From positions 62,001 through 126,000 of the forward strand of contig QPGO01000175.1 of assembly GCA_008632985.1 (NCBI GenBank): a DNA stretch of 64,000 bases. The letters run 5' to 3'. Shown here one piece after another: positions 11,565 through 51,455 of this stretch. Position 1 is the first letter of the stretch. Each line of letters begins with the position of its first letter. The position numbers were made by a program, and so were the translations under genes. This stretch comes from Psammoneis japonica. Taxonomy: Eukaryota. The notes beneath the pieces were generated by a model. It was not told the DNA's origin, did no database searches, and saw only the letters and a program-made list of their open reading frames with translations.

Positions 11565-14500
11565 TCAATCGATAACAATTGGATCATCCGCTGAACTTCC
11601 GATGTCAAATAGGCTTTTCAGATCGCCGATTCTCGCCTGCCGAACTTCTGCCGGGTCGAGCTTTTCCATTGCTCCTTTCCCCATGGTGGCTTTCGCTTCT
11701 TGGATTCGAACCATTTTCTCCTCTATAGTTCCTGACATGATGAACCTCAAAATACGTACGTTTCGGCGTTGACCAATTCTGTGACATCGATCAAATGCTT
11801 GGTGTTCGACAGCTTGACCGTACAAGACAGCGGCAGCATATGTCAGAATTTTTTCACATATTACGATCATGTACCTCCGATCCACTTACCCATATTCCAC
11901 CAAGTATCCATCAAAAAAAGATGCGAGCCACGCGTCAGATTTATTCCCGTTCCTGCGGCATGAAGAGAACACAGCATAAACCTAGGTCCACTGTCCTCCG
12001 AGCTGAACGATTTCATTGACTCAATCCTATCAGTTGCGTTCTTACTTCCGTCGATGCGGGTAAAGGTGTGTCCGTGTGAATGCAACCATGGCTCGATGAT
12101 ATCCAGGAACTTGGTGAACTGGCTAAATATTACGCCTTTCTCGTCGTCTTTCATTTCTTTTATAGCTTCCAACAGGGCGCGGATTTTGGGTGACGCCTCG
12201 ATCTGGTCAGAATCGGAGTCTACTAATGCAGAAACTCGAGCAGGTGGCAACATCAAGGCAGCCTTTTTCAATTCACTTTTCTTCACCATGTCCCTATCAA
12301 CAAAAGCCGTTCGGCAGAGGGGACACGACGCGTTGTTGCCTAACATCCGGAATTTTGCCAGGCAGGGTGCACAAAAGACATGGGAGCAAGTTTTAAGAAC
12401 TATCGCCTCGCTTTCCTCCATTTCAGACAAGCACATCGCACATTCGGGGATGTCATCTTCCCCGCTTTGTTCTTGAGACAAAGCATTTCCCTTGAGCTTC
12501 TCCAGCAATTCCTTTCCTTCCCCCGCAGAGAGAGCGTTGTCGCCGCTCTTTCCAATCTCATTCAGAACCTTTTCATGAAAGGGGGCGACATCATTTTGCG
12601 AGAAACAGGAGTAAATATAGGAGATTCAATTTATCAGACAAGCACCAAAGGTGTTTCACAATCTTACCGCATCGGCCCGCCGTCTTCGCTCCTCCGGAAC
12701 CAGTGTACCACTGCAGCAGGCTTGGCGTATCCGCAACAAAGTTTCAAGGACGGAAACATAGTTTTTTAGAAGTGCTGCGTCTCCGCCCTCTCTAATAGTC
12801 GCCTGAAACACCGCCCGTGATGTCAAAAAAAGGGAGTCGTGCACTTTCTTATGAAAACTGTCTGGAGGGAAGTATACCTTACATATCCGTATTTCTTTTG
12901 GTGGTAGCTTCAACTCGTTGATACCAGACTTGTTTCGACGCAATGCAATGTGCGCCATCATTGCACGGAGCCTCGCAAAACCGGTATTGTCGCCTAGCTC
13001 AATTGGTTGAGAAATCGCGCGACGAAACACATCCCGGTCACCAAAGGGTTCAACACCCAAAAAGGCAAATAGCGAATTAACTGGCGAGAAAGAAATCCAT
13101 TGATAAGGTCACTAGGGCTAGGGAATGATATGTAGCCATGATAGACAAGGCTCACTTACTGTCGTCAGGTTTGTTTTGGAGTGGCGTCCCTGTCAGACAC
13201 CAACGATGGTCTGATTGGAGAGCTTTGCATGCTTTGAACATTCGGGTGTTCATGTTCCGGATCAGATGCGCTTCATCTAGTATCAACTGGCGAGAAAGAA
13301 ATCAATTGATAAGGTCACTATGGAATGATATGTAGCCATGATAGACAAGGCTCACTTACTCGATGGAAATGAAAGTGAAACAGCGAATCTTCGACTAGAA
13401 GCGCGTCATACTTTCGTTTCGTCCCATTTGTGTTGCTCCGTTTCTTTTTCTCGTCAGGGAAGACTTTGGTGAAATCAGCCGCCAATGTATTGTACGACAC
13501 AATAAGAACATCGATCTCATTCGATTGCACTTGGGCTCGGACAGAGTCGCGATTGGTACCTGTGGGAGAGTGACAAGAGGAGAGTGATTGAGGCGACACA
13601 TCGAGAAAGACAGCAAGCCAAAAAGTAACCATCAGCATACTACGATCGAGAGCAAAACCTACCGTGATAAATGGCATATTTCAGGACATTGCTCTGGACG
13701 TGGGCGTCGATCTGGTGGACCCAGTTGCTCATTACCGACACGGGCGACACAATAAGGGTGCACACAGGCGCCGATGCTTCGTGACGTGGTTGAACGGCAA
13801 CTTGCGGATACGTCATGAGTGGATTCACGCCTTGTTGTGGGTGGAAGGCATATTGCGAATGATGCATAACTGGGATCACGCCTTGCTGTGGGTGGTATGC
13901 CATGCTGTTTTCGTTAGATACTAGCTGCATTTCTGGTTGACTATTCTCGTTACGAGGCGGCAGCGAACCCATCGCAACAGCTGCAGGCTTGGAGTCCAAA
14001 CTTTGACATTCCAGGTTGTTCTGACCCGGTGAATAAATTCGACCTCGAGGAGGATTCGCCAAGATTAAGCTAATGGCTTGTACTGTATGAAAAAGAAACA
14101 GCGCAAGCTCAGAAATCAAGTACAGAAATGAGCAGCAACGCAATCAGTATTGAAAATTTCTTGACTTACTTGTTTTGCCTAAACCCATGTCGTCTTTAGC
14201 AGAAAATGTGGAACGGATGAAACGTGAGAAATACGAGTTCTCCGGAAACAAACTTTCGACAAGCAAGACACCGAGAAATTGAGCCTCACCTGCTAATATC
14301 CCACCCTTTACTTGTCTTGGTTCATGAAACTGGGAGCAATGGGTGACTTCGCATAACCAAACCTCTTGACCGTGTTCCATAACTTTTTGGTAAAATGGGA
14401 CGGCAATATTACCAGTTTCTCTATGAACCATCCATTTAATTCCAGCAATTTGGTGGTCAAACAGCCGCACCTGGTACAACTGGGTAGGCATCTCAATGTC

Positions 14501-16248
14501 AGGCAGATTTGCAAGCTGGTCGCGTGTTTGCTTTTCAAACATATCGTCCAAATGCTGTTGATGAGTCTGCCACTCAGGAGCCGCCTCGGTTTCCATAGAA
14601 GGCGCCGTCAAATCGATCACTTCTGCCACACGCTGCACCGGTTGCATCTGGGGCGGAAACGTGCTCGGATGACGAGCAAAGCCTACTGAACCCAAGATGT
14701 TGCCCAAAATAGTAGCAACGCGGGAAACGGCATTGTGACTTGGGGCATTGCGTGCATAGAGGGCAATCAAGACAGACAGACGGTCATTGGCGACTTGTGT
14801 CGCCGTGTCACTCTCTACAATTGTACCATCTACCTTGACACCTGTCCTGCCCTGATCCATTACGACTGCAAGTGGAGCAGCTTGCGCAGTCATAATGTGA
14901 CCGACTTGCTCATTGCGCAAGTTATCTACACGAATTGCATTTTTATCAAGCTCATTGTCTGGCTCTCGAATAAGATTTACGAATTCCCCTGGATGGGCTG
15001 TTCCATCGTAGTTTTGAATGCCTACAGAAACGAAGAAACGCGGTTGAGTTGAGACCATAAGCGTGCGCCGCAAACAAGATGCCAAGAAACCGCTCACTTA
15101 CCAACCACGGAAAACAGACAAGAGCCTAGAAAAGTAAGGACTTCTTCTGGTTCTGCATCCACGTCAATGACCTCTGGTTCCGATTCTCTTGAAGTGGGAA
15201 CTGAAGCAGCAGCAGCCGTAACTGCGGGAGGCGCAACGGATGAAGATGGCAAACCCACCACAGCTGCCTTTGGTGCTGCGGCTGGTAAAGTCGTTGCTAC
15301 AGAAGAAGGCACTCCCTGCGGAGGGTCCGTAATGATACAAATGTCATCGTCATCTGAGTCTTGTTGTGTGGCTGGCGATTCATTCGTCGTCGCCTGGTCT
15401 GCAAATGTATGGTTGAACGACGAACAATTGACCGTCTGCGGCGCGGTGAACTCCATTGTTGACCGACTCGAGGTAGGCTCCAAAGTGTCAGAGGGAATCG
15501 AAGGAAATATACTGAAGGCAGGATCTTGATTGATATCCGACTCGTCTTGTGTTACAGCTGCAGCAGAGCACTGAGCTGTATCTGAATCAGGGATCTCACC
15601 CATCTTATCATCACGGGAAGACAGCGCTTGGGCATATTCCTTTGGAACAATGTCACCGTGGCCGTTCAGTGCTACACTATGCATCACTGCCTGAGATAAG
15701 GATTCTTCTCGTTCTTCGAATGCTGCTACCGTAGTTTGTTCCGGACCATTTTGGGCTAACGCAGTTGGCTTTCCGTCGGACTGTGGAAGTACCGCTTTAT
15801 TCGTCTCACTCGCTACGTTCGACCCCTCGTCGCGCTGCTTAGAGGAATAAGACAGAGATTCGTTGACTATTCCCAGAGGAACACGAGGAGATGATGGATG
15901 CAGGCCAACACCTCTATCGCCGGAACGTTCCATAGAATAAAATTCAGTTGCGTCGGCGTCGGTCGCCGAGACTTGGAGACTTCCTTCTGGAGAAGACATA
16001 AGGTCAACAGGCGCATTCCTAGCTGGAGGAGATAGTAGCTCGATCGGTTCCCTGCTCCGTGCTATACTCGATCTAACACTTTCGTCAATTGAAACACCGC
16101 GCTCTGCCGATGCTGTTGCTGCGGCATGCACTTCTCCCTGTGCCGCGCCTTCTGCATTTGGTGATGGTTCCTCTCCGGGCGCGCTGAGTTCTTCCTGGCT
16201 GACCGCCCTTGCCTCATATTGTGCTGTATCAGTCTGTTGATGATTCAT
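11565..16248 (-). CDS. RAD5/HLTF-like SNF2 helicase with HIRAN and RING domains, multi-exon
   Basis: HIRAN (LIREPDNELDKNAIRVDNLRNEQVGHI), GGILA/DDMGLGKT, spliced RLILDEAHLIRN, WCLTGTPLQN, LLRIRQACC, RING (CAMC...CSHVFCAPC...CPLCR), KGVIFSQFT, GTGINLTRG and QAFDRCHRIGQ. Confidence 0.92.
13081..13159 (-). other. Spliceosomal intron (79 nt), near-identical to the intron at 13287-13359
   Basis: GTAAGT...CGCCAG. Removal gives in-frame NKPDD-I-NSLFAFLGVEP (phase 1). Confidence 0.9.
13287..13359 (-). other. Spliceosomal intron (73 nt), near-identical to the intron at 13081-13159
   Basis: GTAAGT...CGCCAG. Removal gives in-frame HFHR-LILDEAH (phase 0). Confidence 0.9.
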
Positions 16249-17469: not shown

Positions 17470-18903
17470 TCACTTGAAAAAGTGATGTCGGATATCAGTC
17501 TTTGGTTTCAGTAGGTTGTTGTTTATCGCTAATGGTTTGACCACCTTTGTCTTTTTTCGCGAGAAGTTCTTGTTATTCTCATGATCCCTCTCGTTGTATG
17601 CGCGGCCCCTTTTCTTGGAAAGGACGAGTGACAAGAAAGGCTTGTGCGATGCAATATCACGAGCTGCATTTACCTTTCGTGAGTTCTTTTTTTCGGCGGC
17701 CCGGGACATGCGATCCGAATGCGCCGACCTTTTGCCTGTATATGACGGTGGAGCAGGCTCAGGAACCCCCTCTTCCTGCCTGCTTGTTGTTGATGCTGCT
17801 TCTTGAGCGTCGCTGACTTGTCGCAAAATGGAACTCATCTGCTTCTTCGACTTTGGCTTTTCTCGAGAGGATAGTTGTTCCTCCATATCAAACTTATCCC
17901 GCACTACCGGTAGGTTCTGCGGCGACCTTTCTCGTTTTTTCTTGTGAAAAACGACTTGCTTCAGTCTCGAGACTTGATCCTTAAGCTCTTTATTCTCCAT
18001 GACAAGTTTTGGATTCTCTTCCAAGAGACGCTTAACTTCTGACATGTTTCGAGCATTCGACCGTTCCAACTCCTCTCGATGACTTGACTGAATGTCGTCA
18101 AGCTCTCTACGTGTTTGGTCCAGCTCACGTTCTGTGTTAAGAAGCAAATCATTCGCTACCTGAAGTTCACGTTTTGTTGCTGCCATCTCGACGCGAAGGT
18201 CGTTGCGTTCCAAGACCCACTTAGACTTGTCTCCCTCCAGCTTCTTCGCTTGGTCTCGTTGCTCTTCGAGTTCCTCTTTGAAAGACTCGTGTTTCTCTAG
18301 AATTTTCCGGTGATTATCTAGCAGTTGCTTCTGCTTGGACTGAAGTTGCTTGAACCGTCTCTTGTATCGCTTGGACTTGCGACGGTACTTGTTTTCGTCG
18401 TCCTGCTCTGCCTCCTTTCTTCTTTTCCGTACTTTTGTCGGTGAATCCTTCTCCAGAGCCTCCACATCATCCTTGAAATCTTCTGGTGAAGTTTGAGGAG
18501 TCGGTTCGTCGTCATCCAATATCTCAATGATATCCTGCTCAGGATTTTCTTCGCTTTTGTCGTTACCTGTACGCTCCTCAGCTGAAGAATCAATGTTGTC
18601 CGAGACGGCCGCTGAAACGAGATCTTCTTCTTCTTCGTCGCCCATGTCACTCTCTTCGTCACTACTCGAATCTTCGTCGTCTTCTGGCACCGCAGATAGA
18701 TCAATAAAGAGCTTTACGAAACATTTAGATGGCTCGTTACACATGGGGCATTTTGCGTTTCGTCCCCCAGAAGTGTTGTGAGCTTCCCACTGTCGAAAAC
18801 AGTCATGATGAAGACAGTGACCGCAAGGGACAATAGCGCCAATTCCACCGCCTTGACCCTCCGTCAAGGACTCCATACAGATACAGCAGGTTGAATCAGA
18901 CAT
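17470..18903 (-). CDS. N-terminal RING E3 ligase with long coiled coil (TRAIP-like architecture)
   Basis: RING CCIC...CGHCLHHDC...W...CPMC followed by KLFIDL, an acidic region, a coiled coil and a basic C-terminus ending TDIRHHFFK (PIP-box-like). Confidence 0.75.
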   Translation of the reverse strand: MSDSTCCICMESLTEGQGGGIGAIVPCGHCLHHDCFRQWEAHNTSGGRNAKCPMCNEPSKCFVKLFIDLSAVPEDDEDSSSDEESDMGDEEEEDLVSAAVSDNIDSSAEERTGNDKSEENPEQDIIEILDDDEPTPQTSPEDFKDDVEALEKDSPTKVRKRRKEAEQDDENKYRRKSKRYKRRFKQLQSKQKQLLDNHRKILEKHESFKEELEEQRDQAKKLEGDKSKWVLERNDLRVEMAATKRELQVANDLLLNTERELDQTRRELDDIQSSHREELERSNARNMSEVKRLLEENPKLVMENKELKDQVSRLKQVVFHKKKRERSPQNLPVVRDKFDMEEQLSSREKPKSKKQMSSILRQVSDAQEAASTTSRQEEGVPEPAPPSYTGKRSAHSDRMSRAAEKKNSRKVNAARDIASHKPFLSLVLSKKRGRAYNERDHENNKNFSRKKTKVVKPLAINNNLLKPKTDIRHHFFK

Positions 18904-18999
18904 GATGAAATGAGACTTATGGAATCATTAATGCAAAGCCGGTGCACCAGCGGCATCAACAGAAAATGAGAAATGCGCAGCGCCCAAAATTTGAACTCC

Positions 19000-21900
19000 C
19001 TCGCGATGATGACGTCGGCATCGCTCTGTCCTTTTTTCACATCATGCACCCTGCTTCTCATTTTGCTAATTGCTGGCCCTCCGGCACCTTCCCTGATTGT
19101 CTTGACCCTTCTTCCTTGCCAACCCCCATTGTTGCCAAACCCTGGACTCAGCACTGTGCACCTTTGTCATCCCCGGCAACCTGCTGCAATTCCTCCTTCA
19201 AAGAAAATGCCGGCAGCACCCTTGCTGGTTTCACCCCTTCACTCTGTGGCTCCTCCCGCTGCAAGTGTGAAAATTTTCTTTCTCGCCTTCACACCTTTCT
19301 TGTTGGGAAAATCTCTGGCATCTGGCATCACCTTCAAACCCATCCTTCAGCCTCCTGGGACTGCTCACCCCCACCTGCTGTCTCTCAACCTTGCTGGCAA
19401 CAGGCACACCGTGCCTTGCCCCTCTCCACGTGCTCTGCATCTCTTCATCATCTGATGCCATGTGGGGTGCCCTTCTCTTTGCACTGTCAACCCTCTTTCT
19501 GCTCCTCCTAAATCCTTCCAACTCTTTGAGGCTCTGTTGCTTGTTGCTGCTGTTCTGCCAACCCATGCCAAGTCTGGCCTTCCCCCATTCTTGCCCCCCC
19601 CCCCCCCCTGCTGCCTCTCCCCTCTCCCACCTTCACCCCACGGCTGCGCCAACCCAACTTTTGTGATGAAGCCTTCTCTGCTTCAGACAGCTCTGTTGCT
19701 CACCCTCCACACCCTTTTTTGCCTGGGCCTGTTGCTGTTCTTCTCAAGGAGGAGAATGTGCTGATGAAGACAGCCCCTGTGCTCAGCCTGCTCCTCCGCC
19801 AATCTGACCTCGGCTCTCCCAGCAGCTGCCGTCATGCCTGGCTGAGTGCCTTCCCAAAGTTCTCAAGCTGAGACCTCCTCAATTTCATCCTCCCATCATC
19901 TCTTCAGCTTCCTGTGTCACCAGCTCCTTGTCTTGCTGAAATGATGACCCTTCCCATCTCTCACTCTCCTGCTGATGCCACAGGTGTCTTTGCTGGTTCT
20001 GCCAATCTCTGCCTGCCTTCTTTTTGGTCTCTTGTCCTCTTGCTTGTTTTCAGTGGCTCTGCAACCCTGCCATCCATCCTCTCCTGGCCTTTGACTGCTT
20101 TTTGTCACTCATCACTCTGTTGTGCGCAAGGAACCTGCTGAGACCTTGACAAGCTCCATCCTGTTGGCACTGGCATGGCCCTCAAGCTGATTGCTGCTGG
20201 TGCTCTGTTGTCATGGCCCTCCTTTTCAGCTCTGAGCTCACCAAGTGTCTTCTCCCTGATGTGGACAACTTGGCACTGGTGGAATCAAGCTGAGATTCAG
20301 TGGCACCTCTGCTTGGCCTCTCCTGCACAGGCTCTCCCCTTTTTCTGACCTTGTCAACATGTTTGTCAGAGCATTGCACAATGCTTGCCATCATCTTCTT
20401 GCCTCCATTGCTGCCTTCTGCTTGCTCCCTCCATTCATTGACATGGTCATTCACCTGAACTTCAACAAATGCTGGTGCTGCAGCCCTGGCTCCTCTTGGA
20501 GCATTCCTTCACCCAGTGTGAAGGATGCCCAAGGCTGTCCCCTTGGTCCCATCCTCCTTCACTCCATGAATTGCAAACTTCTCCATCACCTCCCACCCCA
20601 CTCTCCTGCCTCCATTGGCCCCTGCATCAATGACACACATTCATCTGTCCTCTGGTTCCTCTGTCCTCTGGTTCCTCTGGCACTTTGAAGCTCTTGGTGC
20701 TGTCCCATGGTGCACCAAGCTCAATCTCCACAAAACTCAGCTCCCACCCTGCAACCCTGCCAAGCTTGCTGCTTCCAACGCACCACCTTCCTTGGCCAGT
20801 CTGATGGCTCTTGCAAGCCTTTGCCACTCTTTCCTCTCTGACATGTCCTCCACTCTCTCCTCCAAAGTTGAGAAGCTCCCCACCTGCCTTCATGACAAAC
20901 AAACTCAAGCCCGCCTTTTGGACATTGTTCCATCTCTTCTTCTGGTGCCCACCTCCTCCTTGTTGCTCTCTGACTTTTGACTTTTGCCACAACTTTGATC
21001 TCAGCAACCCTCCCAACCCCCTTTCATTGGACCTCCTGTTTTCAAGATGCCCTCCTTGTCATCATCCATTGCTCCCTTCCCCTTGTCACCTGCTGTGCAT
21101 TCCCTTGCCATTGCTTTTTTCCCACAAGCCTCCCTTGGTGGCTTGGCTCTTTGACCCTCCTGCCATTTCCATCTCTTCCTTCCTGCTTGTGGCCCTTCTT
21201 CTGTTTCACCATCTCTGCTGCCCACAAAGCTCAGCCATCACCTGGCAATTCCATTGCTCACCCCTGGTGCCTCAAGGTCTCCCTTTCCTCTTGGAACACT
21301 CCCCACTCACATCTCTGCCTTTGTGGCAACTTTTGCTGCTTTGCCTGCACCCTGGACCCTGACTCTGCATCCTCCACCACTTCCCTGTCCTCGCTGCCTC
21401 TGGTCTGGGATCCAGCCTGCACCCACACCATCTCTGTTGTGCTCATCACAGGTGCATTGCTGCTTCCACCCTTGCTGGTGCTCCCCCTCTGATGTCCAAT
21501 CTTCTTTTTCCTCCCATCTGCTGCACCACCCTTCCTTCTGCTTTGTTCACTCTTGCTTCCTGCCCCTGTGGTTGTGCCATCCTGGATGCCTGCAGGGATC
21601 ACTTCTTCTTGCAGAAATGTTGCAGCCACATGCCCAAGCTCTGTCCAGCAGCCTTTGCAACACCATCTTTGTCATTTCTCAAATCTTGGGGCCTCTTGTT
21701 GCCAAGCTGTGTCACTCACCAGCTGATGTCCATCTCAAGCTCCATGTGAATCGTTTGTCCTCTCCCATCCCCTCCTTTGCTCAGCTGATGTCAGCATTTC
21801 CATTCATCCTTCTGCCTCTCTCTTTGCCTCTTCTTGTTGCTGTCACACTGCTGGGCTGTTGACAGGTCACTGCACCAGCCAAAGCTCCTTCTTGCCTGCC

Positions 21901-22435
21901 TCCCAGTCTGCCTGCCCCCTCCACTCCTGCACTGACTGAGGCACACACTGCTTGAGCTTGAGATTGAAGTTTTCTCCTTTTGCTGGTGGTTCTCTTGCCA
22001 TTGTGAACCCCTCAACAATGACAGGATCTTCTTCTTTTCTTTTGCTGTTGATTGCTTGGGTGGTCTTGGCTTCTTCTTTCACCACTTTTTCTTTGGTTCC
22101 TTGGCTCCTGCTGCTTGCTCTCAACCCAAGCCTCCCTGGCACCATCTCTCCACCCTCCACAACTTCAGTGCCTCCTGCTTTGCTTTCCTCCATGCCCTCA
22201 CAGTTTTCCTGTGCCTGTGCCCCTTCTTCCTTCTGCTGACTTAGCCTGATGCTGGAACCAACTTGCCAGCAAACACTTCAGCAGCATGCGCCATGCAATC
22301 CTCTTCTCCTTCTCAACAGGCTGCCCAAACATTGAGCTGCAACATTTCACATCTCATCCTCTCTCTGCTCATGCCTTTTGGCTCTTTTCTGCCCTTTGCA
22401 CAGACTCCTCCCCCACTCCATCTGCCAAATGCCAC
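19000..22435 (+). mobile_element. Degenerate CRE-like (RLE-type) non-LTR retrotransposon, copy 1
   Basis: Ordered remnants: KLHPVGTG (RPIG, ~20150), DLVNMF (~20347), QGCPLGP (20530-20550), CIND for YIDD (20623-20634), KLNLHKT, Zn knuckle CPCGCAILDACRDHFF (~21560), HPLLCSADV for RPADV (~21765), and an FAVD..GGLG RLE end (~22040). Confidence 0.85.
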
Positions 22436-24899: not shown

Positions 24900-25210
24900 C
24901 ACGACGACGACCCCTCCAGTTGCTGTTGCTGCGGAGCTTATTGTTGTTGCTGTTTCTTTCTCTCTACTCTAGAGATCGGTACTCTACCCGACAAAACTGC
25001 AAAGTGTGAGATGAAAGGAATACATTAGACGTGCATTTTGGTTGAAGCCTCGAGATGGATCATCGCTCAATCAAACAGCCAAGGTCAGAGGCGGCCACGA
25101 CAGTTGGTGAGCAGGTATTTTCCAACTTCCAACGTGCTTGAATGTGCTTACACATCGCCTCACTTTCTCTTTCATCCTAAAAATATCTGTTGCTTCAGTC
25201 TATCGAACCG
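24900..25210 (+). repeat. ~300-bp direct repeat, copy A (copy B at ~26910-27275); looks like 5'UTR plus an intron
   Basis: Shared TAGAGAT(A)CGGTACTCTACCC...GATGGATCATCGCTCAATCAAAC...CAGTTGGT(G/A)AGCAGGTATTTTCCAACTTCCAACG...CGCCTCACTTTCTCTT. Confidence 0.85.
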
Positions 25211-25432
25211 GAAGAAAAGGGACCTAAGCCTACCAAGCCCACAATAACAAAAAAGAAGCAGAAAAAGTCGAAATAATCGGCAAAGAAAAACAAGAACAGC
25301 AACGAAGAGAAAACGTCCTTGTCTTCAAGAGTATCGTAAGTATCGAGAGGGAATATCACGCCTTGCCTAAAACTTTAATCTTGGTTGTGCTGATGCTTCA
25401 TCTCCTCTCTGCACCTTGTGTTGGTATTCAGC

Positions 25433-26909: not shown

Positions 26910-27275
26910 TCAACGACGACTCCCTCCAAGTTGAGTGCGAGTTGCTGTTGCTGGTAGTTGGAGCGGAGGTCGTTGCTACTCTTGCTGCGTTGCTTGGTTG
27001 TTGGTGCTGTTTCTGGCTAGAGATACGGTACTCTACCCTACAACAACTGTGAAGTGTGAGTTGAAAGGAACACAATAAACGAGTATTTTGTGTGAAGCCT
27101 CACGATGGATCATCGCTCAATCAAACGGCCATGGTCAGCCACGACAGTTGGTAAGCAGGTATTTTCCAACTTCCAACGTTGTTGAATGTTCTTCGTCAAA
27201 AGGAATGTCAAAGATCTGTACACGTCGCCTCACTTTCTCTTACATCCTTAATATCTGTCGCTTCAATCTATAGAA
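26910..27275 (+). repeat. ~300-bp direct repeat, copy B
   Basis: See copy A. No downstream ORF follows this copy. Confidence 0.85.
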
Positions 27276-27559
27276 TACCCCCCCGCTTCAACAGCTGTTT
27301 CGACGCCTCCTTCTGCTGTTCCTCACGTCGCTAAACTCTGTAATTTCTTACTTATTAGAAAACTATGAACTACCAGATAAGTAACTAACAGTGTTTAGGT
27401 ATAGCCGAATGGGGAACACCATAATGAAATGCTATACGATTCTCACTGTCTCCGGTACCTACAGCACGTAGCTTTCTCTACCGGTAGAGAGTATTGTTCT
27501 TCTAAGTAATCGCGTGACTAGGACATTATACTTTGTCACATACCCCTCGCGTCCACTTC

Positions 27560-30500
27560 CTATTGTGCTTCTCCTACGATCACATCATCTTCTTCTTCGA
27601 TTAATTGTGCTCTCATTGCGTCGTCAAAGAATTTGCTGACGGAAACATCTTCTGACAGCCCCTTGCGTCTCCGTGTCTTTATTAATAGCTCTCGAGCCAG
27701 GCAATGAGGAGGGCTGGGTTCCAACGGGTGCAACATGATATTACGATCCAAAGGATCGCCCGGAACAACTGCCCAGTGGTCAAAAACAGAATACACCATG
27801 GCCTGTCCCTGTGTAAAGGTTCGAAGATCAGTCTCTAGTCCAAAGCTATCAAGGACGGGAATGAAGCCTTTGACGACATGAAGTGTCGATCCCGACATTG
27901 GTTTGTCTTGCACGACGTGTCCTCTTCGTTTGGTTAGGAGTGGCTGGATAGCGTCCACGATTTCACCGGGGCATTGGATTTGCAATCTGTATACGGGCTC
28001 CATGAGTCGCGGAGTTGCAGTAAGAAGTGACGAATGAACGGTGCGCCTTGAGGTCGGGATCATCTGACCACCGCCACGATGAATAGGTTTATCTGCCAGG
28101 ACTGCGTCTAGAATCTTGATTTTGGTACCTCGGACTGGTTCTTCACACAAGGGACCTTCCCGTGTGCCCACTGGAAGCCTTGAACAATGCTGGAACGACA
28201 CGAGCTCAGCAATGTCTTGTCTACCTCACTCGGCAGCGTATCGTCCATCAGAATGTTGGTACCGTGAGTGGGCGACGCGCCAAAGGCCCATACGGAACGA
28301 GAAGAAAGCAAATCCCAATCGTACTGCTTTTGAAAGAATCGCCCGAGCTGAAAGAAAAGACCACACACAAGTGTGAGCTGAGCCACATAGACATATCTAA
28401 CGAAGAGTGCAAGGATCCTACCTTTCTGTTTTCCCAATTCAAATTCACTTTTCCCGCCTCGATTTTTTCAGCAAGGCCGTCGTCAAGAGGCTCCGCAATA
28501 AAGGTGAGCTTATTTCGCTTGTTTGCAGTCTGAAGAACACAAAATGGCGAGTTTGAGAACTACTGAAATAGGAACACGTGGCCATGACATCGAGACAAGA
28601 TTCGTCAAAATTACCTCGGAGAAACACTTGACACTACTCGTTTCCACCACAGTTTCGCAGAATCCAACGACAGGGTCGGCGACTTTGACTTCAATATCCG
28701 AGTACACATGGCGAAGATCGTGCATGACACAGTCGAGATAAAGCTCACCCGTACCGAACAATACGTGCTCTCCGCTTTCTTCCACTCGCGTTCGTGCCAT
28801 TGGGTAAGCCTTTGAAATGCGGCGAAGGCCCTCCACCATCTTTGGCAACTCGGCAGGGTTAAGGGGCTCCACAGCCAGCTTCATGACAGATTCCATACCA
28901 GCCTGCATATTAAGAGTAAACAAAGCAGTCAGCAAGATACATGTAACGAATCAGACGCCCAAAGAAGCGAAGGTGTATGCGTACCTGCTGAAACTTGAGC
29001 GGGTTAAAGATCTCAACTTCATCCAGGCTATCATTCGACGTTGCAGGGTTGTCGTTAACACTTGTAATGGTAGCCGTCTTGGAAATGTTGGAATCAATAC
29101 CATCAAGCAAGACCCAGTTACCAGCCTTCGCCATGGTCACTTCGGTTCGACAGCGACCTCGAGGAATGGCGACAGAAGTCACAGTCGCCACAGCCATGTC
29201 TTCGTCATCATCCGGAGAGTACGCTTCACCCAGCACACGCACTCTTGTCCCTGGTCGGATGGTCCCTGAATATATTCTGCCAAAGGCTGAAAATGACTGT
29301 CCATCTGGAGCCGAGTATAGCTTGACGCAGTGAAACATGAGAGGTCCACGAGGATCGCAGTCCTTCATAGCCGATGCCACGTCCGAATCGAGAGGGCCAG
29401 AGTAGCACCTAGCCACTTTGCCCTTTGCAGCAACGGAAGGGCAGGGACTAAAAAAGGAAAGGCATAATACGTGAGAAAATAGGGCAAACATGTATAACGT
29501 GCAAGTTCAGATGCATCCTCGATTTGGATTCCCTCAGAAAAGCAAGTGTCCACAGTCATTGGTCGAAAGCCAATGATATGTCGGAGACTCTAGTCCGCTT
29601 AATATTGTCTTCAAAGGAGATAGAAAGATCGGAACGAGTCTTTCTGTACTTACATGTGTTTTGCCAACATGTCAACGAAACCTCCACTGGCGCTGCCAAA
29701 GAACCTCGAAAGGGCAGCTCTCAAGAGTGGACGGGCACTGGCACGCAACTGATCCTTGCTGAGCAACACCCCAACACTTCGCAAGAGCTTGGATACGTCT
29801 CGCTCTGATTCGCCCAAACAGGCTGAATAAATCTTGTAGAGTGGCTCCAAGACAAAGGTACAAAAGGTCCTCCCTGCACCACCAGCATCCCGGGCGTGCC
29901 TATGAAAGGTTCTCGTCTCTGTGTTGTAAAAGGCGTCTCCCCACAATCGCTTGGAGAAGTCATCTGCTGACAAATTGTCTCCCAGTCCACCAATCTCATC
30001 ATCTACACAATGGTCTAGATACAAGTTTGCAAAGCTGCCAAGAGTAAAGCACCATCCGTGCAAGGCGGACGCAAACGCGACATTGCCTCTGTCGGGACTG
30101 AGCTTTGGATATCGTCCTCTTGAGACCTGTCCAATCAACTCATTGACAGACTCAATAATGTTGAGAAGCTTGTAATACGCGTCTCGGGGTGGTAATTTGA
30201 GCTCGGCAATCAATCGATCCATCTTGTTAATCAAGAGCACAATGGGCAATCCGTCCGAGATGGCTTGACGAACCACCATTTCGGTATGCATCATGATCCC
30301 CTCCACAGCATCCACAACAAGTACAGCTCCATCCACCGCCCGAAGCGATGCTACAGATTCGTCGTGAAAATTGGCATGACCAGGACAGTCCACCAAAGTG
30401 ACACAATAACTCTTGCCCCGCGAATCCGGCAAAATGGTCGTCAGCGGACAACTCACTAGACTCATGCGCCGGTCTTGTTCCGACTGAAGCGTATCGGTCC

Positions 30501-31101
30501 ACTTGGGTGCTGCACTCGTTTCCAGAGACGCCCGGGGTCCCCACGCATCTGGCTTGCGACAGGTTTGTTCCAACCACATGTCGACCAGTGACGTTTTCCC
30601 GCACGCATAGTGCCCAACCAAGGCCACTCCCCGACGTGTGCGAGTCGTTTCATTCGACACCATGGCCGTCAAGTAGTCATCCGAAAAGACCAAATCATCC
30701 ATATCGAGAGACGCCGCAGTAGCACCACCACCAGCAACGGCGTTTGTCTTTGTCTGAAGAGGCTCCACCAAGGGCACGTCGAGATCCATGGCGTCTTCAT
30801 CTAAAACAGCCGTCCGTACTTCTTCACCATACACCTCATTGGCAGATGGATAATGCTCCTTGTCTTCGTGCAAAACAATGGCACCCATAGGTTCTGCTTC
30901 TGCTTCTTCTTCTTGATGATCCGAGGCGATCACCATGGCACCACCGCCACCACCTTCTTCAGAGACGTCGGATGCATCGTCGGGAGCTTGCGGATGCTCA
31001 TCATCTTCCTCCGAAGAAGAAGAGGAGGAGGAATCATCGTCTAGATCAGGGCCAATGTAATTTCCAAATTCGTCGTACAGTTCTTGCTCTTCGTCAGACA
31101 T
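27560..31101 (-). CDS. EFTUD2: U5 snRNP GTPase Snu114/EFTUD2, multi-exon (apparent 1-nt deletion near 28165)
   Basis: [76 protein letters not shown] and [18 protein letters not shown]. Confidence 0.97.
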
Positions 31102-31450
31102 GGTCGTAAAGGTAGTGTAAGTCTTAACGTAGGGTTACTGTACCGGTATGCACAACAACGCGCTGCCGTCGGATCGATGGCCATGGTGCTGGTGAGCGGA
31201 GCGAGAGCGAAGATCTGGCGTGACGGATGGATGGACGTACGTCGGTCGTCAATTCAAAGGCTCAGAACCCGTTGTCACACAACTCGCGAGTCGCGAGCGA
31301 TGATGTGAGCGAGATCGTCGCGACGATGAACATCACACATCATCTATCTTCACACAACGTCCGACGGGAGTGGTTTATCACACTGTTTCCTCCTCCATCA
31401 TCGAAGCCAGCCCCTGCTAGATCCTTTTATCGCATTCATATAAAGTAGTA

Positions 31451-40936: not shown

Positions 40937-42988
40937 ATGATGACGACGAAGCTATTGCAGTTGATACTACTATGCGTCGCTGCAACGACGACACTGGCTC
41001 AAACAACCATTAATGGCGTGATTGTATCATCTGTTGGAAACAACGGTCAACAACAACAGCAACAGCAACAAAAACCGTTTATTGAAAAAGAAGTTCTGTA
41101 CAATCTCAATCCGTTTGACCTTGTGTTCAGTTCCACACACCACGAATTCTTTGCCACGGGCGAAGCATCTCCGTTTGATAACATCAAGAGCGAAATACGA
41201 ATCATTACCGGATGGTACTTGGAAGCCTTTATCGATAATCTCATTGGTCGAACAGGCTTGGGCTTTCGACAAGTGTCATCGGTCGATTTGCAAGTGGCCT
41301 ACTTTCGACCCGAGCGACCCGGAGACGAACGCAGGTTACAGCAAGGACAAGATGATCTCGAGAAAGAATGGGGATTTCGAGCCGAGATTTATGGAGTGTG
41401 CAAGTTCTTGGTTAACGAATTTAACGCTATTCCTCCAAGAACACAAGTGGAGCGGGTGTTGAATCAGTTGGTTCGAGATGCCTTTGATCAACGAGGGATC
41501 GGGCTCTATGTGGATCAAATGAAGGCAAGTCCCGACAAGGTACTGGCCAACATTGTTACTTTACGGGTGGAGACAGACGAGGTAGCTGCAGTGGATCCAC
41601 CAGAGGGTGAAACCGAGACACAAGAAGAAGAAGGAGGTGGAGGAGGAGGTGAAAGCAGTGGTAGTGGAGGCGGTAGCAAGTGGGACACCAAGGCCTATGT
41701 TCTATGCTTTCTCATGGCCTTCTTCTTGATTGCATCGCTTGTTTGTCTCTACAAGTTCATGTCTCGTCGATACCACGATCACAAGGCCAACAAGAACTTA
41801 ATGGCTACCGATCACTACTTGGACGATATGAATCATATGCTACCACACCAGAATGGAGCTCAAGAAAGCAATCGATACTTGTCACCGGACCGACCCTCGT
41901 TGGATCGACGACTGCTCTATTCCAGTGATCCAAAACAAAACGGGAGTGGTTCCAATGAAAATGTGGTTCCTGTTCCAGCTCCGGTGGACAGGCATCAAAA
42001 CCTTTATGACTTGGGCGATGAAAACCAGACACCCCGGAGGTACATTAATCCTTCGTCTCCTTTACAAATTCTCTACGGTGCTTCCTTTTTGCACGGATCA
42101 AATGCTCAACAAGGCAGTGGTGGAAAACAAAAGAGACGACGTTCCAGTCGAAAGGCACCCTCCGCAAATATCCGTCCCATGCTGAGTATTGCCGAAGAAG
42201 AGCATCCCGGTGGACGTGATTCTCATTATTCCGTGTCGCCGGCGGCGGGCGTCACGTCGTGGATTCGACAATGGACGGGATATCCCGACGAATCGCTGGA
42301 CAAGTTTCAGCATGATGGTGCTCCTTTGCCGAGTCCAACCGGAGTGGAGGAAGTGGGAGTCTTTTACCGGGACTTTCCTCGTCATGACGGTACACCCTGT
42401 CTTATTTACAATTCGGCCCACGGCGATTCGCTTGAACACGGTATGGAAGCCAATGACAATGACGGATCTCTCAAGCTGGACGAAGTGTACATTCGAGACT
42501 CATCCTATCATTCTACGGGTTCCTTGCTTTCGCTAACGTCTGCTCAATCGGCCCGTCACTTTGCTTCCGAAAACAACGACAATGATTTTGTCGTCAAACT
42601 AGAACACTTGATGGAGATGCGTCAAAAGCAATACCGAGAACGTGTGCAAATGGAACAAGAAAAGGCAGCGTACGCCAAGAAACGTCACGAGGGAAGAGCC
42701 AATACTCGGCGGTCCATGTCGTTGGATATACAACAAGAAAATAATGGACCAACAACAAGCAGCAGCGCCGCGAGCGTCGGAGCAGCGAGTGTTCCCCATT
42801 CAAGCCATGATAATAGCCGTGGCATGACAAGTCACCATGATGTTGAGAGGTGTCTTAGTCCCTCGACTACTACGAAAGCGACGGAAGCGACTGTATCCAT
42901 GGATGCCGATTCATCCAGGAGTGGACAGTCAAAGAAACTCATCTCCGTATCACGTATTCGGGAGGAGCAAGGACACGTCATTACATAA
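40937..42988 (+). CDS. Type I membrane protein (signal peptide, extracellular domain, one TM, long disordered tail)
   Basis: MMTTKLLQLILLCVAATTTLA signal peptide, RRLQ motif common in diatom secreted proteins, TM AYVLCFLMAFFLIASLVCLY. Confidence 0.75.
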   Translation: MMTTKLLQLILLCVAATTTLAQTTINGVIVSSVGNNGQQQQQQQQKPFIEKEVLYNLNPFDLVFSSTHHEFFATGEASPFDNIKSEIRIITGWYLEAFIDNLIGRTGLGFRQVSSVDLQVAYFRPERPGDERRLQQGQDDLEKEWGFRAEIYGVCKFLVNEFNAIPPRTQVERVLNQLVRDAFDQRGIGLYVDQMKASPDKVLANIVTLRVETDEVAAVDPPEGETETQEEEGGGGGGESSGSGGGSKWDTKAYVLCFLMAFFLIASLVCLYKFMSRRYHDHKANKNLMATDHYLDDMNHMLPHQNGAQESNRYLSPDRPSLDRRLLYSSDPKQNGSGSNENVVPVPAPVDRHQNLYDLGDENQTPRRYINPSSPLQILYGASFLHGSNAQQGSGGKQKRRRSSRKAPSANIRPMLSIAEEEHPGGRDSHYSVSPAAGVTSWIRQWTGYPDESLDKFQHDGAPLPSPTGVEEVGVFYRDFPRHDGTPCLIYNSAHGDSLEHGMEANDNDGSLKLDEVYIRDSSYHSTGSLLSLTSAQSARHFASENNDNDFVVKLEHLMEMRQKQYRERVQMEQEKAAYAKKRHEGRANTRRSMSLDIQQENNGPTTSSSAASVGAASVPHSSHDNSRGMTSHHDVERCLSPSTTTKATEATVSMDADSSRSGQSKKLISVSRIREEQGHVIT

Positions 42989-43159
42989 TGGCTTTTTAAA
43001 AAAGACGAAGTGATTCCAGCACTTCATTAGGTACATTTGTTTATTACTACCCTCGTTTATACTAAATAAGGAGCTAAAGAGCCTACTAGAGTAGACAGAA
43101 ATACCGGCATGTAGGACTGCAGAAGGAGGCGTCAAAGAAGCTGCTACTAGGTAGAGCGG

Positions 43160-45410
43160 AGGGCGCTTTGTAGAGGGATGAAGGAAAGTGTCCTTGCAAA
43201 GGGTAGAGAGGAAGCAAAGAGCATGAGAGGAGAGGTGGCGTGCAATGTTGGAACTGAGAGTCTGAGTCACCCACTGAGAAGGGGAGGAGGAGTGGTGCGT
43301 GCTGCACCAAAGCGATTGCTGGCAAGTTTGATCAAGGCAAAGTCAACAGAGGGAAGCTGAGAGGGGGGAGAAGCAAGAAGTGAGCCCATGGAGCAAGGCA
43401 GAATAGGAAGCATCAGAGTCTTGCAAGGTGGGTGGCAATGGCCAAGGAGGCTTGGGCTGAGAGCAAGAAGCAGCAGAAAGCAAAGAGCCAAAGAACAAGT
43501 GGCAAAAGAAAAAGCCGAGACCACCAAAGTGATCATCAACAGCAAATGGGAGAGGGAAGATCCTGTCATTGATGAGGAGATTCAACACCAAGAAAGCCAT
43601 CAGCAGAGGAGGCAGAGGTGCCAAGAAACTTTGATCTTGGCTCAAATGGTGTGCCTCAGTCAACGCTGGAACCGAAATGGCCGGCAGACCAGGATGAGGG
43701 TGTGAGAAGAACAAGGAGGTTTGGGTGAGTTGGCATCAACAGTTGTGTGGTGCAGCAGTCATGGTGGCAGCAGGAGCATGTGGAGAGGGACGTGGGAGGA
43801 GGGGCAGAGATGCCAACATCAGCAAGGTGGAGAAGAAGAGGATGGGAGGTCAGAAGGGTTGCAGGTTCAAGGTGTGAACATTGTTGGGAAAACGACACAC
43901 AGCTGACCACCAGGGGCCCCAGGGTCTGTGAAATGATGAAGGTGGTGCCTTGCAGAGGCCGCTGGAGAGCTTGAGCTTGCAACTGCATTGGAATGAGAAG
44001 GTGTGATTAGCGACCACCACAGGCATCAAGGGTGGTGCATCCACGGTCCACAGGGCAGGGAGAGCAAGCCAACATGACATGGATGATGAAGGATGCAGAG
44101 GCACAGCTTGTGCTGAGCAGCAGTGGGCTGGTGCAGGTGCCAGAGGCAAGGCAAGAGGGCTGAAAAAGCACAAGAAAAGGAGTGAAGGGGGTGGCTTGCA
44201 TGAGGGAAAGAAGGGAAGACAGAGAGACTGGAGTGTCAGATGGAGAGTCAGCAGAGGCAGGTGCGGTGGTGTGCTGTTCATCACCATGGCAGAGATGGCA
44301 GGCTAGACCAGCAGGAAGAGCTGATGACGTGACAAGAGCATCCAAGGAGGGAGAGAGTTGGATTGAAGGGTGGGGGCACAGCAATGGAAGAGGGCCCACA
44401 AGTGGAGATTGGAGCAAGGGTCACTCCAAGAGGAGAGAGAGAGAGAGCTTGAAGCAGTGGGAGAGGCTGGACATGTTGACAGAGTCAACAGGCTTCATTG
44501 GCTGAGCTCCACATGAGTGGCAAAGGGAGGCAGGCAGAAAGGCAATGGCAAGGGAGCAGGGGAGGTCAGCATGGCTGGTGGGAGGATGCAGAACACAGCA
44601 GAAAAAGTGGCGGGTGATGGCAAGATGGGCTTCTTGGAAGGGAGGAGATGTCCAGCACTGGGAGGGCTCCTGCTGAGGGTTGTGAGGATCAGAGTTGTGG
44701 TGGAAGTCAACACAATGAGGTGAGCTGAGAGCAGGGAACAAAGAGCAGCACTTGACAAGCTGAGCCAGTGTTTGTTTGTTGTGAGGACAAGCAAGGAGCC
44801 TCTCCACCTCAGAAGAGAGGGTGGAGGATGTGGCAGAAAGCAGGGCATTGGCAAGGGCTTGAGTGCCCCAGCAGAGGCTGGCCAAGAAAGTGGACACTGG
44901 AAGCAAGCTTGGGGCCACAGGACAGGTCATTGACAGGGTTGAGATGTGAAAAGGCAGTGCAAAGGGGGGCTGCTTGGGAAGGGGTTGGGGAGCAAGAATG
45001 GGGCTGGCACCACTGATCAAGACAAGGAGCTCTGGGTTTTGGGAAGGTTGAGCTTGGTGCCGCAGGGGGGGAGCACAAGAGCTCAAAAACACTGAGCAAA
45101 CCAAGGCACAGAAGAGCAAATGAGGAGGAGGCATGTGCAACATCAATGTGAGAGCCAACAGAAGATCAGGAGAGTGAGGTGGGAGACATGGAAGGAGCTC
45201 TTGTGGCTTGCAAAGTGGCTGGAGGCCAGGTGGCAGAGCCAGACCACAGGTGAACAAGATGTGGGTGGGGCGGAGAGGGCACCCTTGAGCAAGCCCTCCA
45301 TGCATGCTGCACAAAGGAGCTCCAAGATGAGTTGGAGTGGCAACGCCAGCACTCATTGGAGTTTTGACAAGTGGCATAAAGAAAGGAAGAGCAGGGTGGA
45401 AGGCAGGCTT
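43160..45410 (-). mobile_element. Degenerate CRE-like non-LTR retrotransposon, copy 2 (5'-truncated, inverted relative to copy 1)
   Basis: GLAQGCPLRP (~45290), HIDV for YIDD (45139-45150), SSTLSSEVERL..HNKQT, Zn-knuckle remnant (~44030), HPLLLHLADVGI (RPADV) and LPFAVDDHFGGLG. Colinear similarity to 20500-22435. Confidence 0.85.
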
Positions 45411-46260
45411 TGAGGTATGAGGTCATGATGGGTGCTGTGCAAAACCAACCACAGCCAATTGACCCACATGCATGACTCAACACAACACCGTGGGAAAAGA
45501 AAGGTGACTGTTTTCAATTCCAAACTCAACATTTTTGCCAAAACAAATCATTTGACACCAGTCAGGTTTTGAAGATTGATTTGAGGTTCTCACCCAGAAA
45601 ACTTTTTTGTGGCAACAAGCTCCATGAGACAAGAGAAAAGATTGAGATGCCAATGACTCCTGCCTTTGAGTGTGTGTTTGGGCATGTTTTGCTCTGCCAC
45701 TGTGCTCTTTACACCTCATTCCATCTGACTTGTTGTGTTCTGTTTTTCCCATTGAATTGGCAGAATGCTGGGGGGGGGGCTGCTGAACTCATGCCCCACC
45801 AAAGATGGCAACAGCTTCCAACTCAGTGTTGCCAAGAATGGCTCACATCATTTCTCAGGTTGTCTGCAATGAAACAAGTCATGATCAAGTGTGGTGGTGC
45901 CAAAGACAATCATGCTCTTGGCTGGCAACTTTTGGCTGGCAACTTTTGGCTTCCTGCATGCAGATGAAGGTGCAATTGAACAAGATCCCCACATGAATTG
46001 TGACATCAAGTGATGGCAAAGCATTTGTGAAATTGCACTGCAAAGCAGCATGGCAAGGTGCGCTTCCCACACTCGAGATGGACTTGCCAATGCAGAAGGG
46101 TGGAATGAAGCTTGACAACTGTGGGCCCAACAGTTTTCTGTTTGAAGAGCCACTTGTGATTGAATGTCCATTCCGACAATGCATTGGGATTGGTTGAAAA
46201 TTCTCAATTTCCTGGCTTTTTTTTTTTCACTCTTGCTTTGCTTCCCAGACTGTGCGCCTG
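45410..46260. mobile_element. Unidentified degenerate TA/CG-depleted DNA adjoining CRE copy 2
   Basis: Same dinucleotide signature. No family motif recognised. Confidence 0.4.
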
Positions 46261-49906: not shown

Positions 49907-50268
49907 GGTGTTGCCGATATATATGAAAAGATGTGTAGCTTGCGTCCTTTCAAAGAAGTGAGCAGTGCTTGCCTTTAGTTCGTTGTTCGAATGTGTTGTC
50001 GGCAGTCTATGGATGGCATCATGGTCGGTGGTGGTCAGCGTTCCCATGACGCACGGAAGGTGTACAGACGGAACACTTCATCATTGAAATTAATCACTTA
50101 CGAATTTAATATATGTGTGATTCTCCCGCCATTTTGCATGAGCTTTTGAGTGTGGCGCAAGAAAGTTTTGCGGTCATGTCATCATGGCGCCCCCCGCCAA
50201 GAGACAAAGGCAGACGTCTGGTAACCGGTAACTGAAATGGGACGTTCGAGGCGCCGACCTATGCTCTA

Positions 50269-50999
50269 TTGCTAATGGCCACTACAAACTGGAGCGGTAA
50301 CTTGTATGGTTTTACCGACTACAATGGACCCCAACCATATGTCAGCAACGCAGTCAAAGAAATTAACCAGAACGACGAGGACGAAGAGAATCCGCTGACG
50401 TGTGGGCTATGGCTCGAGGGCGATTCGTTGGCGCCGCCTTGCGGGACGTCGATAACAACCATTCATGCACTACTCGAGTTTGTGTCTGCATCCGAGAATG
50501 ACATTCTCTATGACATGGGTTGCGGTGACGGGCGAGTGTGTCTGGAGGCAATCGTGAAATGCAACTGTAAACATGTTGTTGGAGTTGAAATCGAAGACGA
50601 CTTGATTGCCAAGTTTCGAAACTTGATCAACAGCTTACAGCATAAATCTCTTATGGATCGAGTCATTCCTCTTCCACAAGATCTCAGAGAGGTTGTTGCG
50701 AGCTTGGTGAAACAGGAACGCAAAGGACTGAAAGCTCGAGTCTTGAAACATCTTTGTTGCCTACTCCATCCATTATTGTTTTGTACTTGTTACCGGAAGC
50801 AGTAGCTGAGCTACAGAGCAGCCTTCTCAACCTTCTTCTACTGGTGCCGAACTTACGAATTGTGTGCAACACGTGGGGATTCAGTGATGCAGCAATTCTG
50901 CCCACAAAGACGCGTGAAGTAGACGAAGGTGGCGGAGCGACAACCAAGCTGTTCTTGTATACAAAAGACGGAATGGTCGAAAAGAACGAGAAAGAGTGA
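50269..50999 (+). CDS. Class I SAM-dependent methyltransferase (frame break near 50730; start uncertain; possibly pseudogene)
   Basis: SLAPPCGT, ILYDMGCGDGRV, VGVEIEDDL, then IVLYLLPEA...RIVCNTWG in another frame. Confidence 0.7.
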
Positions 51000-51455
51000 C
51001 AGAATAGGTGGCGGAAACTTGGAATCCCGATGATGTCATTGTGGTCAGATCGTGTTTGACGAAGGACAACATGACGTGTGGTGTGGACTTGTATCGCGCC
51101 AATGCACTGCGTGTGTTGGTGTAGATTGTCGTTGCGCGATGTGTGGATTCGTCAGGACAAGTGTCGAGTTCGGCCCTCGTGAGTGCGTCGTTGCACCTCT
51201 TTGCGAGTTATCCCGAGTGCGCCGCCGTAGTGAAACGAAAATGGCTCAATACCATGCCATGCAACTCTTGCATCAAATCAAGGCATACGATCATCTCGGC
51301 ATTTCCAAGCTTGTGGCCGCAGTACAGTCAACGCAACTCGCTCAAATCATCACTCGCCGTGGTGAAGTAGGCCGAAGGTGGCGGAGGGACAACCAAGCCA
51401 TTCTTGTATACAAAAGACGGACTCGTCAAAAATGATGAGAAAGAGTGACAGAATA
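50914..51455 (+). repeat. ~93-bp direct repeat (50914-51006 and 51362-51455) flanking the gamma-COP fragment
   Basis: GTGAAGTAG..CGAAGGTGGCGGAG.GACAACCAAGC..TTCTTGTATACAAAAGACGGA...GAGAAAGAGTGACAGAATA appears in both copies. Confidence 0.9.
51007..51361 (+). pseudogene. COPG: Internal fragment of coatomer gamma subunit (gamma-COP) with frameshifts and a stop
   Basis: AETWNPDDVIVVRSCLTKD, MTCGVDLYRANALRVLV*, VSSSALVSASLHLF...VVKRKW and AQYHAMQLLHQIKAYDHLGISKLV match the gamma-COP N-terminal trunk. Confidence 0.8.

Follow-up and report, generated by a model that had tools for sequence, protein, structure and literature searches.

How new spliceosomal introns originate is a long-standing question. 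Most documented recent intron gains come from transposon-like introners, and to our knowledge the pathway in which an intron is reverse-spliced into a transcript has so far been seen directly only with yeast reporters. Here we describe two nearly identical introns, named A and B, which lie one exon apart in a RAD5/HLTF-like gene of the diatom Psammoneis japonica. The gene is located in a stretch of 64,000 nucleotides (positions 62,001 to 126,000 of the forward strand of contig QPGO01000175.1, assembly GCA_008632985.1) that was analysed as a whole. This stretch is called the window throughout, and all coordinates are counted from its first base.

Several systems have been described in which introns appear to give rise to introns; our statements about them are drawn from excerpts of the papers cited. 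Collemare et al. 2013 (PMC3609843) reported 'same gene duplications' (SGD) of near-identical fungal introns, with 82 members in 24 species, half of which have duplicated exon flanks, and the same paper also mentions three such introns in C. elegans. For intron transposition, a 2012 review (PMC3443670) lists 14 natural events, from Mycosphaerella and Oikopleura, and the excerpt names none in diatoms. Two laboratory events were obtained in yeast (Lee and Stevens 2016, as cited in PMC10996645), and the spliceosome is catalytically active after splicing (PMC10996645). Thalassiosira oceanica is given as the one diatom with known introners (PMC12130899). Our literature search, at the level of titles and abstract openings, returned no diatom case of same-gene intron copying.

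Introns A and B belong to a single RAD5/HLTF-like gene that is expressed, and both are ordinary, functional introns of the U2-type GT-AG kind. One of them is a recent copy of the other, and the copied tract runs exactly from GT to AG. The pair belongs to the class of same-gene intron duplications without exon duplication, which we interpret as intron transposition. On balance, we read it as a local, two-copy duplication within the gene, with no dispersed mobile family behind it, that was most likely RNA-mediated, by reverse splicing of the intron into its own transcript.

Results

Sequence relationship of intron A and intron B

Intron A and intron B (Table 1) are identical at 71 of 73 aligned bases in a pairwise alignment and differ additionally by one 6-nt indel. 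The indel lies in a tandem repeat, where CCCTAG is present twice in A and a single CCATAG in B (gap at plus-strand positions 13112-13117), and the two substitutions are found at 13098 (C, versus A at 13304) and 13121 (G, versus T at 13321). When the introns were aligned together with 10 nt of flanking sequence, the similarity ended no more than 1-2 nt beyond the splice sites, and the flanks themselves were unrelated, bar one common A upstream and TT downstream. Comparison of all pairs among the eight introns of the host gene placed the remaining 27 of the 28 pairs at 45-59% identity, and 500 shuffles of B aligned to A reached a maximum of 68%. A 38-mer from the 5' part of the intron, searched with up to 3 mismatches, matched only A and B in the window and was matched in 0 of 100 shuffles. 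The likeness of A and B is far beyond chance.

Both introns have GT...AG termini, are removed precisely and leave the reading frame restored, as U2-type GT-AG spliceosomal introns do. Both also carry a CTTAT motif about 27 nt upstream of the terminal CAG, followed by TTTCTTTCTCGCC; judging by the branch consensus, CTTAT is a candidate branch site.

The pair had been pointed out in an initial annotation, which was made from the letters of the window alone. The coordinates, lengths and phases given there for both introns are all correct, with the gene on the minus strand, and the alignment reproduced its count of one 6-nt indel and about two substitutions. That the flanking exons are unrelated and have only A/GT...AG/TT in common (slashes mark splice sites) was likewise recovered in the flank alignment. 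The interpretation offered there, that one intron was copied from the other, is as good as shown, since the near-identity extends only from GT to AG and the flanking exons are unrelated.

Splicing and assembly support

Of three public sequencing runs from one sample and study, X1 and X2 were used to examine the locus; the third, X3, yielded no contigs there. The contigs of X1 are genome-like and reach 315 kb, and X2 consists of 30 Mb of contigs of up to 16 kb. Contigs and unitigs from both runs were aligned to positions 12400-14000 of the window. An X2 contig of 4147 nt omits exactly intron A (joint 13080/13160, 79 nt, CT..AC on the plus strand) and exactly intron B (joint 13286/13360, 73 nt). 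The same contig also omits introns 7 and 4 (12569-12667 and 13560-13662), both of which are GT...AG once the reported cut offsets are applied. Because four introns are missing at exact GT-AG borders, the contig is taken to be of spliced-RNA origin, and both the A and the B junction, which the initial annotation had left to be confirmed on transcripts, are thereby confirmed.

In X1, a unitig of depth 61.7 that ends at 13151 carries the private variants of A. A second unitig of 221 nt (13131-13351, depth 56.6) joins the 5' part of A, the middle exon and the 3' part of B, the last with the private variants of B. The shared 39-nt block forms a separate unitig with a depth of 103.9, versus 56.6-61.7 in the flanking unitigs (approximately 1.7-1.8 times); a de Bruijn graph necessarily breaks at a repeat. 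The local misassembly that had been named as a possible refutation is disfavoured, as each copy, like the intervening exon, is supported by the re-assembled reads.

The host gene and its other introns

The model of the host gene was built from open frames and splice signals, and its N-terminal 380 residues and start codon are predicted only. Pfam searches with single exons returned, in order, HIRAN (1.3e-10), SNF2-rel_dom (1.6e-14 and 1.5e-13), zf-RING_2 (2.5e-10) and Helicase_C (1.6e-13). This is the architecture of RAD5/HLTF (SMARCA3) proteins, namely HIRAN and an SNF2 ATPase with a RING before Helicase_C, and homologues of the host gene share this set of Pfam domains under the names SMARCA3-like or SNF2. 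Thus, the RAD5-like label first attached to the gene is borne out by both the set and the order of its domains.

The middle exon (13160-13286) corresponds to positions 129-170 of the Pfam SNF2-rel_dom profile and the next exon (12668-13080) to positions 173-287. Since these are consecutive, non-overlapping pieces of one SNF2 profile, the flanking exons are not duplicates of one another. A tandem duplication of an intron-plus-exon unit is ruled out on these grounds, as the initial annotation had held when it set aside an exon-containing duplication. In silico removal of A and B results in a continuous SNF2 domain. Relatives such as P0121, P0001 and P0124 have I or V where A splits the isoleucine codon, and from the conservation of this position it follows that the copying event added an intron and nothing else. 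A copy that included the three exonic bases A...TT, and hence added an isoleucine, is ruled out because the relatives already have I or V there.

Intron 1 begins with the same 10 nt, GTAAGTGAGC (15092-15101), as A and B. With only these 10 nt in common and an overall identity of 58%, which is within the background range, intron 1 is ruled out as a degenerate third copy. The common start perhaps reflects an extended 5' splice-site preference, or chance.

Homologous loci

The best matches of the host protein are diatom proteins, with Attheya sp. closest (57-66% identity), followed by Seminavis, Pseudo-nitzschia, Skeletonema and Thalassiosira; the closest relative in the databases compared has about 65% protein identity. 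To this set we added 49 homologue loci from metagenome contigs, found by a scan with the homologue alignment, onto which the spliced host protein was mapped by tblastn. At site A, 45 of the 49 loci read through, three end short of the site and one, L017, has an intron 16 nt upstream, between Q878 and N879. At site B, 39 of the 49 read through, eight end short, and in L007 and L008 an intron follows LDEA, 18 nt downstream of the site. An intron at the exact position of A or B was found in none of the homologues with readable DNA (the 49 loci), nor in P0121, which favours the initial annotation on the point, raised there, of whether orthologues contain both introns.

We take the 49 loci as genomic because 16 of them are on contigs of more than 10 kb and, in many, the frame is interrupted in other parts of the gene. 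Some of these interruptions coincide, exactly or nearly, with introns 2 and 8 of the host gene (about the intron-2 site, for example, in L005, L006 and the ORF P0122; near the intron-8 site, in L010, L030 and L036), so the mapping method is able to see shared positions. Introns 2 (GGILA/DDMGLGKT) and 8 (DTWWN./A) are probably old, with positions that seem to be shared with several diatom homologues. P0121, a fragment of 212 amino acids with 65% identity to exon 7, from a contig of 1624 nt, reads through both site A and site B. Its open reading frame ends with ...AEQ followed by V-C-stop at the site of intron 7; as the frame runs into a GT intron there, P0121 looks genomic, and the intron-7 position appears to be common to it and the host gene.

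In the diatom homologues, the region of amino acids 840-885 has several closely spaced apparent intron positions (L007, L008, L011, L017, P0061, P0063, P0082, P0040, P0056, P0128, P0124, P0043 and others). These lie after LDEA, near amino acids 867-870, at Q878/N879 and possibly just before [IV][IV]LDEAH. The SNF2 stretch around the DEAH box and the TGTP..N..D motif looks like a hotspot of lineage-specific intron positions.

Copy number and mobile-element features

The depth of the shared 39-mer fits two copies, not a large young family, and leaves no room for further copies with identical 31-mers. Searches with blastn-short and with an nhmmer profile of A and B found no third copy across the window (next-best nhmmer E-value 0.38), and in the homologue loci (239,220 bases) no nhmmer hit had an E-value below 6.1. 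The exact 38-mer had no match in viral contigs, in the 49 homologue loci or in supplement files 1-12 of the 14 of PMC12130899. Of the two outcomes that the initial annotation had foreseen, many copies or a local pair, the latter is therefore favoured, given a 39-mer depth of about twice that of the flanks and no other copy in the window.

Features of mobile elements were then sought in the introns themselves. Neither A nor B was found to have terminal inverted repeats (TIRs), as had been noted from the start, and the sole such feature is an 8-nt palindrome inside B. The predicted RNA folds of A and B are no more stable than those of shuffles (z = -0.25 and -0.21), and neither intron has an Rfam match with E up to 1. 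A target-site duplication is excluded by the junction bases: the intron is preceded by A but ends in G, and it starts with GT but is followed by TT. At 73-79 nt, A and B compare with 77-103 nt for the other introns of the host gene. No reverse-transcriptase or transposase domain was detected among the 13 largest open reading frames (ORFs) of the window, which are ordinary nuclear genes (COQ9, two proteasome lid subunits, a U5 snRNP GTPase, a Nop-domain protein, PAP-fibrillin and a hybrid histidine kinase). Together, the pair lacks the marks of an introner family, namely dispersed copies (as judged from 31-mer depth and one window), TIRs, target duplication, a stable fold and extra length.

Other features of the window

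Further repeats were recorded in the window (Table 1). The first copy of the 93-nt repeat, at 50913-51006, codes in frame for the C-terminus (...EVDEGGGATTKLFLYTKDGMVEKNEKE-stop) of a SAM-methyltransferase-like protein, whose gene lies at 50236-50999. The second copy, at 51362-51455, encodes a similar peptide in an otherwise poorly coding downstream stretch. A second copied-intron pair is ruled out here, as the repeat looks like a duplicated gene end, with similar peptides encoded by the two copies; a coatomer gene, also considered for this place, has no Pfam support. The repeated segments at 24927 and 26985 are possibly common ends or promoters of tandem paralogues. The repeats of 135-140 nt at 59.5-59.8 kb were also considered as copied introns and ruled out, since exon-like sequence is repeated along with them, as in a tandem segmental duplication.

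Two regions of the window have strongly biased composition. Positions 18001-22000 have a GC skew of -0.25 to -0.35 and an AT skew of -0.24 to -0.36, and positions 42001-46000 have a GC skew of +0.18 to +0.29, the opposite strand bias. The two are linked by three imperfect inverted repeats of 37-46 nt that are 74-81% complementary, which suggests that they are diverged inverted paralogous genes of biased composition. The U5 snRNP GTPase gene, at 29650-31134 on the minus strand, encodes an EFTUD2/Snu114-like protein (EFTUD2 N-terminal domain and GTP_EFTU), a core spliceosome component; its location in this window is coincidental.

Table 1. Positions of the introns, the host gene and the repeats in the window (a slash marks the position of an intron).
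Feature	Position	Strand	Description
Host gene, coding region including stop codon	11565-16248	minus	1329 codons, counted from the first ATG; eight introns, each 73-103 nt long
Intron 1	15022-15101	minus	80 nt, predicted
Intron 2	14194-14289	minus	96 nt, predicted, at GGILA/DDMGLGKT; removal restores the GGILADDMGLGKT motif
Intron 3	14083-14169	minus	87 nt, predicted
Intron 4	13560-13662	minus	103 nt, GTAGGT...CAG; not related in sequence to A and B (identity 50-52%); absent from the X2 contig
Intron B	13287-13359	minus	73 nt, GTAAGT...CAG; immediately precedes LILDEAH (helicase motif II), in phase 0 between R842 and L843
Exon between A and B	13160-13286	minus	127 nt, encodes LILDEAH...TGTPLQNKPDD
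Intron A	13081-13159	minus	79 nt, GTAAGT...CAG, phase 1, in the Ile codon A/TT of QNKPDD/INSLF; carries the CCCTAG tandem duplication
Identical 39-nt block	13122-13160 = 13322-13360	minus	5' 38 nt of the intron and the preceding exonic A (repeat family D10)
Intron 7	12569-12667	minus	99 nt, GTAAGA...AAG; not related in sequence to A and B; absent from the X2 contig
Intron 8	11813-11889	minus	77 nt, predicted, at DTWWNM/AVEHQ
Repeated segment, about 330 nt	24927-25250 and 26985-27300	plus	about 2.05 kb apart, about 80-89% identity, several indels
Repeat pair, 93 nt	50913-51006 and 51362-51455	plus	449 nt apart, 89% identity, starts at GT
Tandem units of 135-140 nt, then 27-30-nt CTG/CAT-rich repeats	59519-59950	minus (coding)	units 84-95% identical; Met/Gln-rich repetitive protein

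Discussion

The reading that we favour is that an intron of the RAD5/HLTF-like gene was copied into its own gene by way of RNA. The excised intron would have been reverse-spliced by the spliceosome into a transcript of the same gene, at a position 127 nt away whose A/TT context is identical. The reverse-spliced RNA would then have been reverse-transcribed, and the cDNA would have recombined with the gene over a short tract, with the neighbouring introns kept; it is the retention of those introns that implies a short recombination tract. A sense copy that extends exactly from GT to AG, lies in the same transcript, is spliceable, lacks a target duplication and is present twice is as intron transposition predicts in the excerpted account of PMC3443670.

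The time since A and B separated amounts to approximately 3x10^7 generations (2 differences in 73 sites, at 4.77e-10 per site per generation), a rough value given that the rate is borrowed from another diatom and that it dates either the event or the last homogenisation, being reset by any later conversion. The rate itself is the diatom mutation rate quoted in PMC12130899.

Several points weigh against this reading or against the evidence on which it stands. An RNA intermediate and a DNA-level templated copy look alike in the end product, and we infer the mechanism from that product; the flank matches of donor and target, A (1 nt) and TT (2 nt), fit microhomology-guided DNA repair equally well. 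Intron gain by way of reverse transcriptase is regarded as rare, and introns are also lost by this route (excerpts of PMC3443670 and PMC10996645). Run X2 is on record only as 'DNA?', and its cDNA nature is deduced from the four exact GT-AG deletions. Run X1 is possibly the source data of this very assembly, in which case its unitigs provide a consistency check and no independent replicate. The depth estimate sees only copies with identical 31-mers, so that older, diverged relatives of A and B elsewhere in the genome would escape it, and the depth tool carries its own warning against reading summed depths as copy numbers.

Further points of this kind come from ORF fragments of distant homologues. 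Among 123 homologous proteins, P0061, P0040, P0056, P0063 and P0082 start, after unrelated residues, just before [IV][IV]LDEAH. In a search of representative proteins, P0128 starts exactly at MILDEAH, the position of site B, P0124 starts two codons before site A, and P0127 and P0133 start at the residue aligned to I885. One or both intron positions could thus be older than this lineage. By codon logic, the putative intron in P0063 and P0082 would lie 1 nt off the position of B. As a control, P0222 also starts near site A, yet L016, a locus 95% identical to it, reads through; from this we conclude that the starts of ORF fragments are unreliable as markers of introns.

Four other explanations were considered for the pair. 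A copy made at the level of DNA, in which microhomology-primed templated synthesis filled a break in the recipient site with about 75 nt from the intron 206 bp away and selection kept an insert that happened to splice exactly, is unlikely, if the least unlikely of the four. A and B are very close and in the same orientation, as such a repair event would have it, and their flanks offer the 1-nt and 2-nt matches from which synthesis could be primed. However, this microhomology is weak and arises by chance in about 1 of 64 cases (an estimate with uniform base odds), the flanks lack the short direct repeats described for repair-generated introns, and the exact ends at GT and AG, with no base extra or missing, must be explained by selection alone. 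Somewhat less plausible is an overwriting of one sequence by the other, through gene conversion or reverse splicing, at two sites that were both already intronic. The distant diatom ORF fragments that start at or next to B and A, as listed above, would accord with such old positions, and most suspected reverse-splicing events in fungi are at previously intronic positions (PMC3443670, in excerpt). Yet unrelated introns give no homology with which conversion could start, a conversion tract that ends exactly at both splice sites would be improbable, and P0121, the closest genomic-looking relative, is without both introns. In addition, the near-site introns that can be read sit 16-18 nt off, not at the same positions, and the P0222/L016 control takes weight from the ORF starts.

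That A and B are both insertions of a mobile introner or introner-like element, with more copies elsewhere in the genome, is in our judgement improbable. Such elements are known in marine protists including T. oceanica, and some families number only 4-21 copies (excerpt of PMC12130899); moreover, neither exact position is intronic in homologues with readable DNA, as would be expected of two recent insertions. The shared 39-mer, however, has only about 1.7-1.8 times the single-copy depth, no other copy is present in the 64-kb window, and the 38-mer is absent from the supplement files searched. The introns show no TIRs, no possible target duplication and no stable fold, they are no longer than the other introns of the gene, and a low-copy family would be very unlikely to insert twice at random in a single gene, 127 nt apart. 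Finally, an assembly artefact, that is, a collapsed or chimeric repeat, is barely credible. At the shared 39-mer the de Bruijn graph indeed branches, but the private variants of each copy are on full-depth unitigs, the 221-nt unitig joins the 5' part of A, the exon and the 3' part of B, and the exon order of the spliced contig is that of the assembly.

The copied pair is of interest because few cases are known in which an ordinary intron was copied and both donor and copy are still recognisable. The pair is unusually clean: both introns are spliced, the ends are exact, the split codon is ancestral, no target duplication is present and the depth is that of two copies. These features constrain the mechanism to one that makes an exact GT-to-AG copy 127 nt away in the same transcript. 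The pair also points to a diatom lineage that is worth screening for further copied introns. It is conceivable, and in our view rather doubtful, that spliceosome-mediated intron transposition is active in this diatom, or was so until very recently, with the pair as a fresh natural product of reverse splicing in which donor and copy are intact. If so, its genome would show more low-copy intron pairs and would provide a natural system for the spread of introns without transposons.

Compared with the systems described to date, of which we again use excerpts, the pair differs from the tandem duplication of an AGGT-containing exon segment (PMC3443670). Both are local, same-gene origins of a new intron, but the AGGT route makes an intron from exon sequence, whereas A and B represent an intron copying an intron with no exon repeat. 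Introners and introner-like elements of Micromonas, fungi, dinoflagellates and T. oceanica (PMC12130899, PMC3609843) are likewise mutually similar introns that create new positions. Unlike A and B, they occur in tens to thousands of copies in many genes, and they often have terminal repeats or target duplications, in the DNA-transposon types, or stable folds and greater length, in the fungal elements; A and B have none of these.

The fungal SGD (PMC3609843) are a close parallel. They too are near-identical introns within one gene only and low in number, and the half without exon duplication was read as same-transcript transposition. They differ from the present case in that they are fungal and ours is from a diatom, and in that splicing, two-copy depth and absence from homologues were here checked for a single pair. 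Intron transposition by reverse splicing (PMC3443670) predicts a GT-AG-bounded sense copy without target duplication that is spliceable at once and possibly lies in the same mRNA; this pair is known from its end product alone, with no RNA intermediate or reverse-transcriptase step visible, and its end product has this form. The case is of a known but rare kind and establishes no new category. Taken together, these comparisons place introns A and B of P. japonica as a clean natural specimen of same-gene intron duplication.

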